Position numbers and translations under genes: made by a program. The notes below the pieces were generated by a model. It ran no database searches. It had not been told where the DNA came from and worked only from the letters and a program-made list of their open reading frames with translations. From positions 1 through 25,274 of the IMG/VR virus record IMGVR_UViG_3300037634_004491: DNA of 25,274 nt; one strand, given 5' to 3'. The DNA comes from a virus. Its lineage: Duplodnaviria > Caudoviricetes. Within the stretch, counting starts at the first letter, position 1; every line of letters starts with the position of its first letter. Positions 1,764 through 15,862 of this stretch are shown here, piece by piece.

Positions 1764-2011
1764 TTTTTTCCCTCACATTTTGGACACTCAACTTCTTTTA
1801 ACTTATATGTGGGAAAATCATCATAATATACGGGGACGCGCTTTTTCCCAATAAGTCCGTACTCCCAAGCTATCTCACACTCAGGACACATCGATACTGG
1901 AAAGTCTCCATAACTATAATTGTTTACCTCCCCAGGTGTCTTTTCGGGGGGGTTAAAATAATAATTAGGGATCCACCATGTCCTTTTTTTGTCTTTTTTT
2001 CCCAAATTCAA
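1760..2011 (-). CDS. Zn-finger hypothetical protein
   Basis: CPEC...CPKC pairs. Confidence 0.65.
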   Translation of the reverse strand: MNLGKKDKKRTWWIPNYYFNPPEKTPGEVNNYSYGDFPVSMCPECEIAWEYGLIGKKRVPVYYDDFPTYKLKEVECPKCEGKK

Positions 2012-2358
2012 ACATCGTCTCTCTTTTCCTCCCGTTTGTCAAACTGATAAAATACTTCCATCAACCCAACCACATCTCTTTTTGACATTGTAATATCGTG
2101 CCCATCAATAGTTATATTAATAGAGCTCAGCACAACATTAGGCCGCTTTACAGTGGCCTCTTCTTCATGTAATATCTCGGCCCCCAGTATGGCGGGCTTT
2201 CCTTGTCTTGCCCCCATCTCGGCCATCCTTTCCTTATACTCTTCTATCCATCCTCTTAGCGCTGACAGTGATATGTCATACTTCCTCGCTGTAGCCGAAA
2301 GCGGCTGGCCATTGACACACTCTTTAACTGCTTGATTCTTGAAGCTCTGGTCGTACAT
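2008..2358 (-). CDS. HTH DNA-binding protein (IS3 OrfA / HTH_Tnp_1-like N-terminus)
   Basis: MYDQSFKNQAVKEC..GQPLSATARKYDISLSALRGWI resembles HTH_Tnp_1; likely start ATG 2358 after GAGG. Confidence 0.65.
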   Translation of the reverse strand: MYDQSFKNQAVKECVNGQPLSATARKYDISLSALRGWIEEYKERMAEMGARQGKPAILGAEILHEEEATVKRPNVVLSSINITIDGHDITMSKRDVVGLMEVFYQFDKREEKRDDV

Positions 2359-2548
2359 CTTCGGCCTCCTCGTTTTGTTTTGTAATAAACTCTCTGATCT
2401 TGTCACTGTCGCCATTCATCTCTATATAGTGGGATAGCGTCATAAATAATGTATCAATAGCATGGTTTTGCTTTTGTATTTCCATCATAAGTATATCAGT
2501 CCTCTTCTCTAACTCCCTGTTGTTGCTTGGCTTCCTTTTAGTCTTCAT
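2324..2548 (-). CDS. hypothetical protein
   Basis: ORF track; coiled-coil-like; overlaps neighbours. Confidence 0.6.
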   Translation of the reverse strand: MKTKRKPSNNRELEKRTDILMMEIQKQNHAIDTLFMTLSHYIEMNGDSDKIREFITKQNEEAEDVRPELQESSS

Positions 2549-2792
2549 CTTCTATCCTTGTAAAAAAGCATGGCGTGTTCTCTCCAACATAAGCACCCGC
2601 TGTGTTAAAATAAAAATATTCTACAGCCTCTTCATATGTCATGTCTGTGGCTAATATTTCTATACATTTATCTTTGTCATAACAGGCAATGCTGGGCATG
2701 CCTGCCCTTTCAATGTATCCGACAAGCGCATCATCAAACCCGTCTGCAAACAGCATATCTTCGTTCACCTCAGCTACCGCTTCTCTGTTCAT
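2538..2792 (-). CDS. conserved phage hypothetical protein
   Basis: ADGFDDALVG...YDKDKCIEIL...EEAVEYF.FN..GAYVGENTP resembles a widespread phage hypothetical family; start moved to ATG 2792. Confidence 0.75.
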   Translation of the reverse strand: MNREAVAEVNEDMLFADGFDDALVGYIERAGMPSIACYDKDKCIEILATDMTYEEAVEYFYFNTAGAYVGENTPCFFTRIEDED

Positions 2793-2988
2793 GTAATTTG
2801 TTCCACTTTTTAGCGTTCTTACCACCAGTTTCTCTTCTAGCACACTTCTTACATACATGCAGCTGCCTCCAATCTACCAGTGTAACGCTGTCTGGTGTTG
2901 CAAGGTATTTTTCCCTGCCTCTATGGCCACATATCTGACATGCAAATATATCACTGACACTTACTTTTTCTATATATCTAATTTTCAT
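2770..2988 (-). CDS. Zn-finger hypothetical protein directly downstream of the array
   Basis: CQIC...CKKC; ATG lies inside the last degenerate array repeat. Confidence 0.65.
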   Translation of the reverse strand: MKIRYIEKVSVSDIFACQICGHRGREKYLATPDSVTLVDWRQLHVCKKCARRETGGKNAKKWNKLHEQRSGS

Positions 2989-3604
2989 CGCTTATTGTTT
3001 TTGGGTTGCTCAACATATTTGACTCGCTTCACGATTATGGTGTTCTATTTGCTATTGGCACACTCTGGGTGTATGTTTGTATTCGGTCGCGTGGTTCACT
3101 TGATAAGTGTGGTTGTCTCCATTCCTGTGGTTCACTTTTATCCAACGGTTGTCTAAATTAGGTTGGTTCACTTCATTAAACTGGTTATCTGTACCATTTC
3201 GGTTCACTCTCTCCATGTGGCTGCCTTACAATGGTTGGTTCACTCTTTTCATCTGGATGTCTGCATTTCCCTGATTCACTTATTTGTTCTGGCCTTCTAT
3301 TAGATTTTGGTTCACTTGTATTATTCGGCTGTCTAGGTTTTATTGGCTCACTTGTCAAATGTGGTTGTCTCAATTCTCCTGATTCACTTTTATACCTTGT
3401 TTGCATTATGCGTTCTGGTTCACTCTCACCTTCTGGTTGCCTTTGCATAACTGGTTCACTTGGCTTGTGTGGTCTACTTGCACACATTGGTTCACTAAAC
3501 AAATATGGTTGTCTGTCTGGTAATGGTTCACTTTGCAATAATGGTTGTCATCCTGCCGTTGGTTCACTTGGGATATTTGGATGTCTTTAGGGAAGTGGTA
3601 TTAA
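2984..3604 (-). ncRNA. TIGR-like dual-repeat guide-RNA array, 17 x 36-nt units (9-nt edge repeat AGTGAACCA, 9-nt spacer, 9-nt loop repeat AGACAACCA, 9-nt spacer)
   Basis: Plus strand: TGGTTCACT-like at 3020, 3056, 3092...3560 (16 copies, 10 exact); TGGTTGTCT-like at 3002, 3038...3578 (17 copies); exact 18-nt offset, no indels; partial edge repeats at 3596 and 2984; intervening 9-mers unique. Confidence 0.9.
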
Positions 3605-4476
3605 ACACTATCTCTGCCATGTTTGAGTCCAAGCTTAGCCTCACTATAAGGAGCATGAACTTCCAGTCCCTCAATCTTTCTCCACACTTTATATAGATCT
3701 ATAATAAACATCTTTACCATGTAACGAATACACATGTTATGCTTGTGACCCTTAGACTTATCATCATGGTCAGGAGTATTATTTAATCTATCTTTATAAT
3801 TATCGTACACAGCTCTATATGGATTGTCTTTGACTCCAGCCCTTAAGAATGAGCTTCCGAGAACTCCAACCAGCTTAGTCTTTAAGAATGGATTGAATGA
3901 GATCCCCTTCTTAGTCTTAACCTCACCCTCTCTACTGGTGTACTCAGTATCAATAAGATGCTCTTTCTTTCTACTACGACCCCTGCCGTCTTGAGCTACA
4001 TCAAGCCCTGCATACTTCCATATGCTGGAGGAATACTTTGCCTTCTCTATGTCTATCTCTGAAATAATAACTCCAGCCATAGCTGGCCCTACACCCCTTA
4101 CTCCCTTTAAGAAGTGAGTGTATATCTTATACTCATCCAGCACCTTACCTAGCTGTCTAAAATGCTTTGCCTCGTCCCTCTCTAGCGTGAAGTACTGGTC
4201 AATAAGTACCAGCTCAGTCATGTTAGATATAAGACTATCCCCATTTTTAGAGAATGTTCTAGGCAGTGATGCCATACCATCTGTTATAAGCTTGTACTCA
4301 GCCTTTAAATAGTCGAGCACTTTCTTAGCGTCCTGATCGGCCGCATCTTCTTTTACACTAGGCTCCATGCCCAGCTTTGATTTAAAGTTGGCCACTATAC
4401 GGCCTCCCATCTGTATTCTAAGAGCCTGTATATCATAGGCTCCTCTTACGATTGACTTTAGGTTACTTGTGTTCAT
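3601..4476 (-). CDS. tasA: IS110/Nop-domain RNA-binding protein without a nuclease domain (TasA-like)
   Basis: Helical N-terminus, then FLKGVRGVGPAMAGVIISEI...SSIWKYAGL...FNPFLKTKL...YR..YDNYKDR...H..AIRY-like segment (IS110 Transposase_20/Nop-like); no N-terminal DEDD/RuvC or HNH; adjacent 36-nt array. Symbol assigned from architecture. Confidence 0.82.
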   Translation of the reverse strand: MNTSNLKSIVRGAYDIQALRIQMGGRIVANFKSKLGMEPSVKEDAADQDAKKVLDYLKAEYKLITDGMASLPRTFSKNGDSLISNMTELVLIDQYFTLERDEAKHFRQLGKVLDEYKIYTHFLKGVRGVGPAMAGVIISEIDIEKAKYSSSIWKYAGLDVAQDGRGRSRKKEHLIDTEYTSREGEVKTKKGISFNPFLKTKLVGVLGSSFLRAGVKDNPYRAVYDNYKDRLNNTPDHDDKSKGHKHNMCIRYMVKMFIIDLYKVWRKIEGLEVHAPYSEAKLGLKHGRDSV

Positions 4477-4732
4477 CTCTTTGTTTCCTTTTTTTTAGCG
4501 TTCCGTTTCTTGAGTGCCCATGCTCTCTTAGCTTGAGTATTACTGAGTTGCCACCAAGCTGTTCATAGCGCTTCTCAATTGTGTTTATTAAAGCTTCGGT
4601 TATGGTTGTTCCAGTTATCTCACTCACACTGCCAGCCCCCATCTTATAGTAGTACAATAGTAGCTGTGCATAACTGTTTCTTATAAAGTTCATCCTTGTT
4701 GTTGTACGCTTATTCATTTCTACGCCTTTCAT
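4463..4732 (-). CDS. hypothetical protein overlapping the tasA-like start
   Basis: ORF track; start could be an internal Met. Confidence 0.65.
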   Translation of the reverse strand: MKGVEMNKRTTTRMNFIRNSYAQLLLYYYKMGAGSVSEITGTTITEALINTIEKRYEQLGGNSVILKLREHGHSRNGTLKKRKQRDEHK

Positions 4733-4884
4733 TATAATTGTAGTAGTTTCTTCTGTTTGGCGTATCTCTCAACATTGTACTCTCTCTTGCACTTGTGGCA
4801 CATTGAGGCTCTCGTCAGTGCGTTCTTGTAGAACTGGTCTAAAGACTTGTCTTCCTTGCACCGAGTGCAAACCTTAGTTCTCAT
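4732..4884 (-). CDS. small Zn-ribbon protein (50 aa, MRTKVCTRCKEDK...CHKC)
   Basis: Translated by hand; two CxxC pairs; ATGA/TAATG coupling on both sides. Confidence 0.65.
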   Translation of the reverse strand: MRTKVCTRCKEDKSLDQFYKNALTRASMCHKCKREYNVERYAKQKKLLQL

Positions 4885-13672: not shown

Positions 13673-14509
13673 TTAGTGTAATTGAATTACTATTTCAAAA
13701 TCTTTAAACGTGTCCAAATTCCCACAAGCATGACCGATATTGGTACATTCACCACATACCGACGGACAAACAAATACTTTATGGTCAAAATTGTCTCTTA
13801 TATTCTCCCCCTTCTCGACCTTCATAGCAGTAAACTCTCCTCTCACAAAGTATAGACCTTTGAGGAATTTCTTAAGGTCATCATATTTCCCACCATTGGA
13901 GAGATTTAGAGCATAATTGGAAGGGAATTTGTAACCTTCATCATGCAATTTAAGGAAGAGATTTAGAGACTTGGAATATCCGTAGGTAATTAGTCTTGGA
14001 TTGTCTCTAATTAACTCCATCCAATTGACGAGGTCTGTTTCAGTAAAGAAATCTCCATCCACATAGAGCCTAAAATCCACCTTCTCAAGGTCTCTAAATT
14101 GACTGGTGTTCAAGACCCTCTTCAGTTCCCTCTTTATGGTGTCAAATTCGCTCATTAAGAGAGTATTTTGCACCTGTCGAAGGAAACTAGCAGGATATCT
14201 CCATGCCTTGAATGAATAGCAGTAAGTTTTACAGGCTCCTGCTCCAATACAAGTCACTACAGGCAATGTACTAAAATTTAGAAATGGCAGTTTGCTGTTC
14301 CCTACCTTGAACATCTCAAATTGCAGTTCTTCGGTCTCTCCATCGAGCCAAGACAAGAACCTTCTTATGTGATACTCGTTAGAGTTTACTTTATACTCGG
14401 TGTGTCCCTCTATAAAGTTGTTCAATATTACTCTAATTCCGTCCCTGTCATTAACTCCTGCAAGTTTTGAAATTTGAGTTTTGATCTCGTTGGTAAATAC
14501 TTTCTTCAT
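13673..14509 (-). CDS. phage Gp88-like protein (radical-SAM-like Fe-S protein)
   Basis: GNSKLPFLNFSTLPVVTCIGAGACKTYCY.FKA, FRLYVDGDF, YGYSKS and C-terminal CPSVCGEC...C motifs. Confidence 0.75.
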   Translation of the reverse strand: MKKVFTNEIKTQISKLAGVNDRDGIRVILNNFIEGHTEYKVNSNEYHIRRFLSWLDGETEELQFEMFKVGNSKLPFLNFSTLPVVTCIGAGACKTYCYSFKAWRYPASFLRQVQNTLLMSEFDTIKRELKRVLNTSQFRDLEKVDFRLYVDGDFFTETDLVNWMELIRDNPRLITYGYSKSLNLFLKLHDEGYKFPSNYALNLSNGGKYDDLKKFLKGLYFVRGEFTAMKVEKGENIRDNFDHKVFVCPSVCGECTNIGHACGNLDTFKDFEIVIQLH

Positions 14510-14706
14510 GGTTTCGGTTTCCTTTTCTTATTCGGGTTTGTATTTCTTGTCGATGGCGAGGAGTCCGAGTCCTCATAAGTCCTATTCCACCCATCGATAT
14601 AGGCAACGATAAACTTTGTTATCTTCGAGTCAGTCGGTATGCATAGGAAACTCTGTCCTGTACGTCGGCAGATTACATTAAACTTTGTCTCGTCGATGGA
14701 ATTCAC
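14506..14706 (-). CDS. hypothetical protein
   Basis: ORF track; ATGA overlap with the Gp88-like gene; start uncertain. Confidence 0.45.
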   Translation of the reverse strand: MNSIDETKFNVICRRTGQSFLCIPTDSKITKFIVAYIDGWNRTYEDSDSSPSTRNTNPNKKRKPKP

Positions 14707-15620
14707 TCAAATCTTGTGAGGTTTACCCTTCTGTATGGTGAACTCGTCGACTACTGACTTGTCCTATCTCCATCCTTTAACTCGTCCTAAACTCTGACCT
14801 TTCTCCATCGGTGACCATCATTCAACCCTCCGTTACTATGTCACCTGTTTTCAGTATGGCATCTCTTTCTCTCGTTGGTTAGGAGTCAATTCTATTGAGG
14901 GTCTTGCCCTGCTGTATACTCCCAACGTCGATTACTCGAAATGTTGTCCCTGTTATGATTATTTAGGTTATGTAAAAAAGCAATGCATTAATCAACTGAC
15001 ATAATATACATTAGATATCTAATATCTTTAACATAAATAAAATAATAATTGAATATAGCGACGAGGTCAGAGCCTCAAGTCAGCCTCAAATATTGATAAA
15101 TATTAGTAAATGATACATAGCAAAACACCCAAATCCGAAGTAATACTGACGGCATTAGGATTGGATGCACAAAGCATGATAGTAGTATAGCGACGAGGAT
15201 CGCCTCAAATCATGGTGGACTTTGCCTCAATCATTACTCATATACTATATAGACTAATAGACTAAATGGTATCCGATACCCGTTACACCGATGAGTAATA
15301 TAATGAGTGGTTGAGAATGGTATAATAAAAGAATATCTATGAGAGTTACCGAGGAGAAACGGATTGTATTTGTACAGGTTAGTAACCATTGTCCCCTTCT
15401 TTACGCTGACGTGTTACCGACGGACACCGACGGAAGCAAATGGTTACCGACGAGGTAATGGTTAGGAAAAAAACCAAAGTTAACGTAATCCGAAAACCGA
15501 AAAACCCTCGACGCCCCGCCCCCTTTAGGTTATTGGTCACGCATTATTTTCCACCATTTTTTTAGGTTTTGTACTTTTGTAAACAATCCTTAACTTATCC
15601 TAATTAATTAAGGGAGACAT
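14707..15620. promoter_or_regulatory. large divergent intergenic/control region between the two arms
   Basis: No ORF of 60 aa or more in the track; strand switch; AT-rich core; palindrome ATTAGATATCTAAT at 15010-15023; repeated TATAGCGACGAGG and GTTACCGA motifs. Confidence 0.6.
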
Positions 15621-15624
15621 AGAC

Positions 15625-15783
15625 ATGCCAGCAAACAAACCATATCCAGGCGAGAATCCAGCCGCTGCACGAAAGAGAATAGCTGCTAATAAAGCTAAGA
15701 ATCCTGGTTCTATTAAGACTAAGGCTGATATGATGGCCGAAAACATATCCAGTACCATTAAAAATATAGGTGGTGGATACTAG
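15625..15783 (+). CDS. small basic protein (52 aa, MPANKPYPGENPAAARKR...)
   Basis: Translated by hand; AGGGAG RBS. Confidence 0.6.
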   Translation: MPANKPYPGENPAAARKRIAANKAKNPGSIKTKADMMAENISSTIKNIGGGY

Positions 15784-15862
15784 GGCCTTACTAGGGGCTA
15801 CCTAGGGGCTAGCTGGGGCTCATTAGCCCCACAGGTAAAGGTAAAGGTAAAGGTAATAGGTA
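15780..15862. repeat. CTAGGGGCTA repeats, GGGGCT-N4-AGCCCC palindrome and AGGTAA tandem; second copy of the rep-gene element
   Basis: 15815-15843 matches the reverse complement of 6289-6317 at 28 of 29 positions. Confidence 0.8.

Follow-up and report, generated by a model that had tools for sequence, protein, structure and literature searches.

We analyzed a stretch of 25,274 bases, which we will call the window. It makes up the whole of the viral record IMGVR_UViG_3300037634_004491 and represents part of a tailed phage. The minus strand of the window encodes a 291-amino-acid protein of the Tas family (tasA, 3601..4476), and directly after this gene lies an array of 17 units of 36 nucleotides each (2993..3604). 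Very probably, the gene and the array make up a dual-repeat TIGR-TasA system: we predict that the array yields 36-nucleotide guides and that a dimer of TasA, which has no nuclease, uses these guides to bind matching DNA and not to cut it. As an identification, this is ordinary, and the locus is one more dual-repeat TIGR-TasA in a phage. The added value lies mainly in a series of array versions, which we found in close relatives of the window.

A dual-repeat array directly after tasA

The array extends for 612 bases on the minus strand. If this strand is read in rows of 36 nucleotides, then unit n starts at 3604-36n. Each unit consists of an edge repeat (consensus AGUGAACCA), a 9-nucleotide spacer (spacer A), a loop repeat (consensus AGACAACCA), and another 9-nucleotide spacer (spacer B). 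Both the edge repeat and the loop repeat have the form AG.....CCA, with a start resembling box D and with the CCA of box C.

The array follows tasA without a gap and on the same strand. The first edge repeat (TTAATACCA, minus strand, 3596..3604) is shortened at its 5' end, keeps the CCA at its other end, and contains the stop codon of tasA (TAA at 3603..3601). The last edge repeat (AGCGATGAA, minus strand, 2984..2992) is shortened at its 3' end. It keeps AGCGA, and the sequence AGCGATG holds the start codon of the next gene (ATG, 2988). Faure 2025 (PMC12045711) defines this dual-repeat architecture and includes in it the shortened repeats at both ends, with the 3'-shortened repeat followed by a terminator.

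An earlier reading of the window, made from the sequence alone and without database searches, had already described 17 units of 36 nucleotides, without indels, directly after the stop codon of the 291-amino-acid gene. This is just what we find, from 3604 to 2993. The sequence-only reading had also counted 34 different 9-mers, and indeed no two of the 34 spacers are the same; on average, a pair of them has a Hamming distance of 6.5 out of 9. Its claim of a strict 9/9/9/9 pattern is correct for the period but not for the repeats, which are consensus forms: AGTGAACCA is exact in 10 of the 17 units, and AGACAACCA is exact in 3 of the 17 loop repeats. The final two units bear AGTGTGCCA and AGCGAGTCA.

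The 36-nucleotide periodicity is far beyond chance. For the best 540 nucleotides, the self-match at lag 36 is 0.557, as compared to 0.332 ± 0.012 for 110 other lags (from 5 to 120). In the 15 best units, the columns for the repeats have 0.95-2.0 bits, and most of the columns for the spacers have under 0.4 bits. Matches to AGTGAACCA on the array's strand are nearly confined to the array: with up to one mismatch allowed, 14 of the 16 matches in the window are inside it. The G+C content of the spacers is 36.9%, versus 39.3% for the window. The array was missed by Tandem Repeats Finder, although this TIGR array could be recognized just by reading the sequence.

A Tas protein without a nuclease domain

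As judged from its translation and from comparisons with NCBIfam, with the Protein Data Bank (PDB), and by Foldseek, the 291-amino-acid protein has a coiled coil and a Nop domain and lacks a nuclease domain. It matches NCBIfam NF052498.1 (TIGR_Tas_endo, "TIGR-Tas system RNA-guided endonuclease") with 111.7 bits, where the cut-off is 100, and the match covers positions 3-215 of the 215 positions in the profile. When compared to solved structures with phmmer, the best match is TaTasR (PDB 9mty, E = 1.2e-13), and SpTasH is also found (PDB 21kl, E = 3.6e-9). An AlphaFold2 model built from 21 relatives (predicted local distance difference test, 75.5; predicted template modelling score, 0.71) is helical up to residue 156 and then has a mixed domain of the Nop type, with no strand before residue 160. 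The sequence-only reading had suggested a TIGR-Tas-like system and had named profile and structure comparisons as a way to check it. When we compared the model to the PDB with Foldseek, the ten highest-ranking matches were all chains of TasH or TasR (E = 1e-8 to 4e-7, probability 1.00), followed by the recombinases IS621 (E = 9e-4) and ISCro4. So both sequence and fold bear out the relationship to TasR and TasH.

The sequence-only reading also saw a Transposase_20/Nop-like region, as in IS110, but no DEDD recombinase domain. We agree: the fold is of the Nop type, and the match to Pfam's Transposase_20 is just below the cut-off (20.1 versus 21.3 bits, E = 8e-4). In PHROGs, the protein matches family 4285, which is labelled "transposase" (E = 2.5e-32). 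Pfam reports no DEDD, RuvC, or HNH domain in the 291 amino acids, and residues 1-104 include neither histidine nor cysteine. Because it has none of these nuclease domains, the protein is a TasA, and not a TasR or a TasH. For the same reason, the "endonuclease" in the name of the NCBIfam family does not apply to it.

SpTasH cuts its own guides by means of Y289 and H296 (PMC13421893), and this Y/H processing pair is described as being kept in dual-repeat systems (Xu et al. 2026, bioRxiv 10.64898/2026.09.09.750476). Y277 of TasA aligns with Y289 of SpTasH, and both Y277 and H286 are invariant in 21 of 21 members of the family. We predict that Y277 and H286 are the RNA-processing pair, with H286 lying two residues past the position of H296. 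More broadly, tasA is intact, and the alignment of the 21 sequences has 73 invariant columns.

Base pairs within the edge repeat

We examined covariation in 1,276 units from 98 loci. The anchors that we used to place the units ignore the positions being tested, and the counts are of units and not of independent events. In 96.9% of units, positions 2 and 7 of the edge repeat make up a standard pair, versus 83.3% expected from the base frequencies (A-U in 494, G-C in 452, and G-U in 290; the unpaired combination A-C is found in 20). Similarly, pairing between positions 3 and 6 occurs in 98.0%, versus 79.6% expected (C-G in 836, U-A in 351, and U-G in 61; the unpaired combination C-A is found in 23). 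If the pairing is slid, to positions 2-8 or 3-7, then there is no excess. The two covarying base pairs fit the two pairs that are described for TasR, in whose structure the edge repeat forms the box C/D pair and one more pair that is "always supported by covariation" (Faure 2025, PMC12045711).

As a whole, the RNA of the array is less stable than shuffled sequences are (z = +2.17; 20 of 20 shuffles fold at least as well). This weak folding is in line with published work, which notes that arrays do not have long duplexes before they are processed.

The proposed role of TasA and its array

FpTasA, TaTasR, and SpTasH carry 36-nucleotide RNAs that start and end in the middle of the edge repeat, and the two spacers of a tigRNA pair with opposite strands of an 18-base-pair site (Faure 2025). 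MbTasA, which is a TasA, and catalytically dead TasR bind DNA and act as guide-dependent and reversible repressors of transcription (Xu 2026, bioRxiv 10.64898/2026.09.09.750476). By analogy to these systems, we propose that the array is transcribed along with tasA, in the leftward early operon of the phage, and that two TasA protomers would hold an edge repeat and a loop repeat by their AG...CCA ends. Cleavage of the transcript would occur midway through each edge repeat, and Y277 and H286, near the C terminus of the protein itself, would probably carry it out. In the 36-nucleotide RNA, spacer A would then pair with one strand of an 18-base-pair site in DNA, and spacer B with the other strand. 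Once bound, the complex may block transcription or replication.

Relatives of TasA in other phages

Among proteins of similar length, we found 2,379 relatives of TasA (E up to 1e-3). A scan of viral contigs with the single protein found no relative. A scan with an alignment (A1) found 141, of which 80 were kept (identity 49-73%); we will call these the distant loci. In 76 of the 80 distant loci, an array with a 36-nucleotide period lies beside the gene. With a motif filter instead, 74 have an array, which is downstream of the gene in 62 cases, upstream in 11, and on both sides in 1. The other 6 have fewer than three units, and one of these is a contig that ends 160 nucleotides past the gene. 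In 79 of the 80 loci, the gene and the units share a strand; in the remaining one (L072), there are three weak matches on the opposite strand. In the distant loci, the edge repeat is A[A/G]CGAG[U/C]CA, and the loop repeat is AGA[A/C]AACCA or variants of it. As a further check, the sequence-only reading had proposed to ask whether homologs carry similar arrays with different spacers, and the homologous loci do. None of six neighboring genes from the window was found in the 80 distant loci. Since no neighbor travels with tasA, the mobile module is tasA and the array alone.

This clade has already been catalogued. At least four rows of Table S1 of Faure 2025 begin with the first 31 residues of the window's protein, and these rows are all in one cluster at 50% identity. 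Two of them, as far as can be judged by eye, seem to be identical to our relatives P0009 (83% identical to TasA) and P0011 (81% identical), so the clade is not new. The exact protein of the window is not among the rows listed in Table S1 that share its first 31 residues. A megablast search with positions 2900-4500 against phages from GenBank found no match.

We also noticed a more distant relative in a jumbo phage of Ralstonia, phiRSL1 (NC_010811.2; our locus L001). Its ORF034, which is annotated as "transposase", is 36.6% identical, and it is followed by 1.4 kb without an annotated gene (3969-5395 in L001, or about 14217-15643 in NC_010811.2). By eye, this stretch contains roughly 35 degenerate 36-nucleotide units of the dual-repeat kind; they fall below our threshold for periodicity. 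Neither "Ralstonia" nor "RSL1" appears in the main text of Faure 2025 or in the 9,182 rows of its Table S1 that were searched.

Array versions in close relatives

The lineage of this phage is abundant in marine metagenomes: 24 sequencing runs from 18 studies, labelled "marine metagenome", contain the window in whole or in part. Four of them are possible sources of the window, and none of the runs listed is of RNA. From a scan of metagenomes, we obtained 26 contigs whose Tas proteins are 82-100% identical to TasA (the close loci), and 19 of these have an array that can be read. There are 16 distinct array compositions, built from 133 families of units. Twelve compositions cover a complete array, of 15-27 units. 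In 18 of 19 in-phase close loci, the first edge repeat is TTAATACCA or TTAATACTA; it is ATAATACTA in L106, and L096 is out of phase. The 3'-shortened last edge repeat is present in every close locus that reaches the end of the array.

The arrays differ by whole units, while the phage backbones that carry them are nearly identical. L085 is identical to the window across all 873 bases of the gene and 500 bases downstream, except that it lacks exactly one unit. In L086, where the gene is 95.3% identical, 7 of the window's 17 units are held in common. When contigs from three other studies are compared to the window, there are joints inside the array, and, for joints with a known insert, the length changes by a net 36, 72, or 144 nucleotides. 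The order of the shared units is kept: just 25 of 1,714 pairs of shared units are inverted.

Sharing depends on the position within the array, and private units are commoner toward tasA. In the complete arrays, the unit that directly follows the stop codon comes from any of 6 families; the last unit is the same in all 12. Units in the quarter nearest tasA are shared, on average, by 2.3 of the 12 arrays, versus 5.9 for the distal quarter. Position and sharing have a rank correlation of 0.30, which was reached by 0 of 2,000 permutations within arrays, and it is 0.21 without the last unit (reached by 1 of 2,000 permutations); because the arrays being compared are related to each other, these tests are not independent. 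Change is not confined to one end of the array, as there is also variation in the units that directly precede the last one.

The form of the edge repeat changes along the array as well. In every complete array, it is AGUGAACCA near tasA, followed by AGUGAGCCA and AGUGAGUCA, and then AGCGAGUCA or AACGAGUCA at the far end. The form at the far end is that of the clade at 60% identity. This series, which passes through G-U wobble intermediates, retains both base pairs at every step, with C-G changing to U-G and then to U-A, and with G-U changing to G-C. Three accounts would explain the gradient: units might be added at one end by copying the proximal repeat; or the repeats might be homogenized, with an effect that fades with distance; or arrays might recombine with each other and lose units differentially. 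It is possible, but we would not count on it, that the array versions are a record of the first of these, that is, of polarized addition of units by copying of the proximal repeat. The forms of the edge repeat would then be lined up from the old, far end to the new, near end. This would resemble adaptation, but without Cas1 or Cas2.

We noticed several other features of these arrays. First, two interior units are present in all 12 complete arrays (at 3424-3389 and 3100-3065 in the window, minus strand; they also occur in L083-L108). Their spacers are GAACGCATA/AGGTATAAA and CGCGACCGA/TACACCCAG, and both units carry an odd loop repeat, AUGCAAACA or AUACAAACA. In these AU.CAAACA loops, G2 is changed to U and C7 is changed to A, so that the pair of positions 2 and 7 is kept (as U-A). 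These two universal units, with their compensated pair, may have a fixed, special role. Second, five of the close loci (L091, L092, L096, L098, and L108) have units of 37 nucleotides, in which one spacer has 10 nucleotides. There are 1-5 such units per array, and they shift its phase. Third, the B spacer GTTTAATGA is paired with two different A spacers within one array (L086, 2824-2967; also in other close loci), and several units look like copies with point mutations, such as AAGTCGCCT/AAGGCCTTA and AAGTCGGCT/AAGGTCTCA. The repeated B spacer and the mutated copies suggest recombination at the loop repeat or drift of the guides.

With their 133 families of units, their collinear backbone, and their gradient of repeat forms, the close relatives are a natural data set for testing models of how units are gained, lost, and recombined. 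These array versions bear on how TIGR arrays grow. Both recent papers on these systems describe the acquisition of spacers and the natural targets as unknown. The many array versions from this lineage also provide a large pool of guides for finding targets.

Searches for targets

From the published 3' overhangs of 8 nucleotides, we deduced the geometry of a target: one of its strands would read as spacer A and then spacer B in reverse complement. We searched for both strand arrangements. Within the window (with the array masked, with 16 units, leaving out the first one at 3604, and with gaps of 0-2), the best matches have 3 mismatches, and there are 8 of these, versus 1-7 in each of 10 shuffles, which does not exceed chance. 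Across 448 kb of sequence around the relatives, 940 pairs of spacers gave no exact matches; with one mismatch, there were 7 and 1 matches, versus 0-8 in controls. Finally, we compared 883 pairs (including the first unit) to 793 kb from kin phages, taken from around relatives of the terminase, with gaps from -1 to 2. Again, there were no exact matches; with one mismatch, there were 24 and 7 matches, versus 6-21 and 5-24 in controls with re-paired spacers. Given that neither the phage's own 25 kb nor its kin yielded a site, we think it most likely that the guides target host genes or rival mobile elements.

Alternative explanations

Several observations weigh against our proposal. Few of the loop repeats match their consensus exactly, and two units, those with the AUGCAAACA or AUACAAACA loops, lack both the AG and the CCA. 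The repeats begin with AG, instead of the UG that is described for TasR arrays. In the protein, H286 is offset, to two residues after the position of H296 from SpTasH. The published arrays typically end with a terminator, but we found no terminator-like site on the minus strand between the array and the 72-amino-acid gene that follows it. And none of the target searches, whether in the window, around the relatives, or in kin phages, found an exact match.

Some of these observations would fit with the array being a relic, or with its having a role other than guiding: it might be a decoy for the Tas protein of a host or a rival, or a site for RNA processing that makes the expression of the downstream genes independent of the upstream operon. 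The array does lie within an operon, without a terminator; the next gene does start within its last repeat; many of the loop repeats are degenerate; and the searches for targets were negative. However, tasA is intact and well conserved, as shown by its 73 invariant columns across 21 sequences. Furthermore, the spacers turn over while the repeats and their base pairs are kept, and a relic would decay in both. So we consider a relic or a non-guiding role to be unlikely.

We also considered that the repeats might act as DNA: they could be iterons or binding sites, spaced by 18 base pairs, for a DNA-binding protein of the phage, such as at an origin. The motifs are short and are all in the same orientation, and they lie in a region for replication or recombination, with genes for a Sak-like annealing protein and a RusA-like resolvase nearby. 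But the compensatory changes in the edge repeat, at positions 2/7 and 3/6, point to pairing in RNA. The repeats are also linked to a Tas gene in 74-76 of the 80 distant loci, and the relatives with solved structures bind exactly this kind of RNA. This makes a purely DNA-level role very improbable.

Because 36 is a multiple of 3, the array might instead encode a repeat protein with a period of 12 residues (SEPxxxRQPxxx). ORFs of 117 and 119 amino acids, as called mechanically, do overlap the array. Against this, none of the six frames is free of stop codons in any of the 16 array versions (the window has 3 to 26 stops per frame), and the 37-nucleotide units in some relatives would shift the frame. 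The nine spacer positions are nearly random (1.67-1.98 bits), without a codon-position pattern. The sequence-only reading had listed identical 9-mers under codon-level selection as something that would speak against guides; what we see is different spacers and no open frame through any of the 16 versions. We give a repeat protein almost no credence.

Finally, it is scarcely conceivable that the locus is a degenerate IS110-type transposon with a bridge RNA or a miniature CRISPR array, because, despite the weak match to Transposase_20, the "transposase" label of PHROG 4285, and the weaker fold match to IS621 (E = 9e-4), the protein has a helical N terminus and no DEDD domain and there are 17 tandem units instead of one two-loop bridge RNA, and because, as the sequence-only reading had maintained for CRISPR, the repeats have 9 nucleotides instead of 25-36, each unit has two spacers, and a PHROGs scan of the window's 29 ORFs found no match to a cas family.

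Phage context and operon setting

The completeness of the viral record is estimated at about 45%. Genes on the plus strand, at 16-24 kb, match the small and large subunits of terminase, the portal protein, and the major head protein. Genes on the minus strand, at 0.7-15.7 kb, include those for the RusA-like resolvase and the Sak-like annealing protein, as well as a helix-turn-helix regulator and a GP88-like protein. Thus tasA and the array sit in a long, leftward block of genes of the early type.

The gene upstream of tasA (89 amino acids; 4463..4732, minus strand) overlaps the start of tasA by 14 nucleotides, which places tasA within a long leftward operon. The downstream gene (72 amino acids, with a CxxC...CxxC motif; 2770..2988, minus strand) starts inside the last repeat of the array and so likely shares its transcript. 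It is not a component of the system; it is present in 15 of the 26 close loci and in none of the 80 distant loci. Promoter-like sites are at the level of shuffled sequences (12 versus 8.0 ± 2.4). Since the array follows tasA without a gap and has neither a terminator nor a convincing promoter of its own, we infer that tasA and the array are co-transcribed with the phage's leftward operon.

Another small ORF (50 amino acids; 4732-4884, minus strand) also encodes a CxxC...CxxC zinc ribbon, so that zinc-ribbon ORFs flank the tasA-array module. Both of them are restricted to close relatives. Because of weak matches to PHROGs labelled "HNH endonuclease", we considered the 50-amino-acid ORF as the other part of a split TasH. 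We rejected this, since the zinc-ribbon ORF has no HNH motif and none of the 80 distant loci contains it.

A 135-amino-acid protein (2008-2415, minus strand) is encoded about 0.6 kb downstream, past the end of the array. It has an HTH_Tnp_1 domain (E = 2e-8), and it weakly matches an IS66-like TnpA and IS3. Between the leftward block and the rightward packaging genes, at 15779-15862, the window has two tandem repeats, the 11-mer ACTAGGGGCTA (3.9 copies) and the 6-mer AGGTAA (4.8 copies), which may mark a regulatory or packaging site. A search for tRNA genes found none, and a search of Rfam, at E up to 1, found nothing but a chance match to a miRNA.

Comparison with known systems

CRISPR-Cas systems have repeats of 25-36 nucleotides, one spacer per unit, and cas genes. 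Like the locus in the window, they have a repeat-spacer array by the gene for the effector, and their array variants differ by whole units, with the far end being conserved. Unlike them, the TIGR array alternates two 9-nucleotide repeats and has two 9-nucleotide spacers per guide, which read opposite strands of DNA. It has no PAM (protospacer-adjacent motif), no Cas1 or Cas2, and no known route for acquiring spacers.

Members of the IS110 family have a DEDD (RuvC-like) recombinase domain at the N terminus and use a single bridge RNA. The window's system has neither. Nevertheless, IS110/IS621 and the box C/D small nucleolar ribonucleoproteins (snoRNPs) with Nop5 share the Nop-type RNA-binding fold with TasA (E = 9e-4 for IS621; no Nop5 structure is among the Foldseek matches listed). 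As in TIGR systems, the guides of IS110/IS621 and of snoRNPs are in two parts and are flanked by motifs like boxes C and D (Faure 2025).

TaTasR (PDB 9mty) has the same layout of 9-nucleotide repeats (UGCGAGCCA and UGAAACCCA) and the two base pairs in the edge repeat. It differs from the window's system in being archaeal and in cutting both strands of DNA; its RuvC domain is active, and its repeats start with UG and not AG.

SpTIGR-TasH, from the Salicola phage CGphi29, gives the best fold matches (PDB 9w03, 9w04, and 21kl; E = 1e-8) and is also encoded by a phage. Its repeats, AGCGAGCCA and AGACAACCA, are almost the same as those of the distal units in the window's family (Table S1). But SpTasH has an HNH nuclease at its N terminus and 8-nucleotide spacers, and it cuts DNA. 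It is 27% identical to TasA from the window.

FpTIGR-TasA, from Flavonifractor plautii, resembles the window's system in its protein and in its array. FpTasA has about 290 amino acids (by eye, versus 291) and no nuclease domain, and a dual-repeat array of 36-nucleotide units with 9-nucleotide spacers lies directly downstream. Judging by eye from Table S1, the two proteins share YDIQ.LRI..G.RIVA near the N terminus, NPFLKTKLVGVLGS, and PY.(E/V)AKLG..H near the C terminus. The repeats of FpTIGR are different (by eye, AGUGUACC for the edge and AGUAACCC for the loop, from Table S1), and it is from a bacterial contig instead of a marine phage. FpTasA pulls down 36-nucleotide RNAs (Faure 2025). The window's system is of the dual-repeat type with a putative Y/H pair, and the activity that we predict for its protein is the one shown for MbTasA and catalytically dead TasR (Xu 2026).

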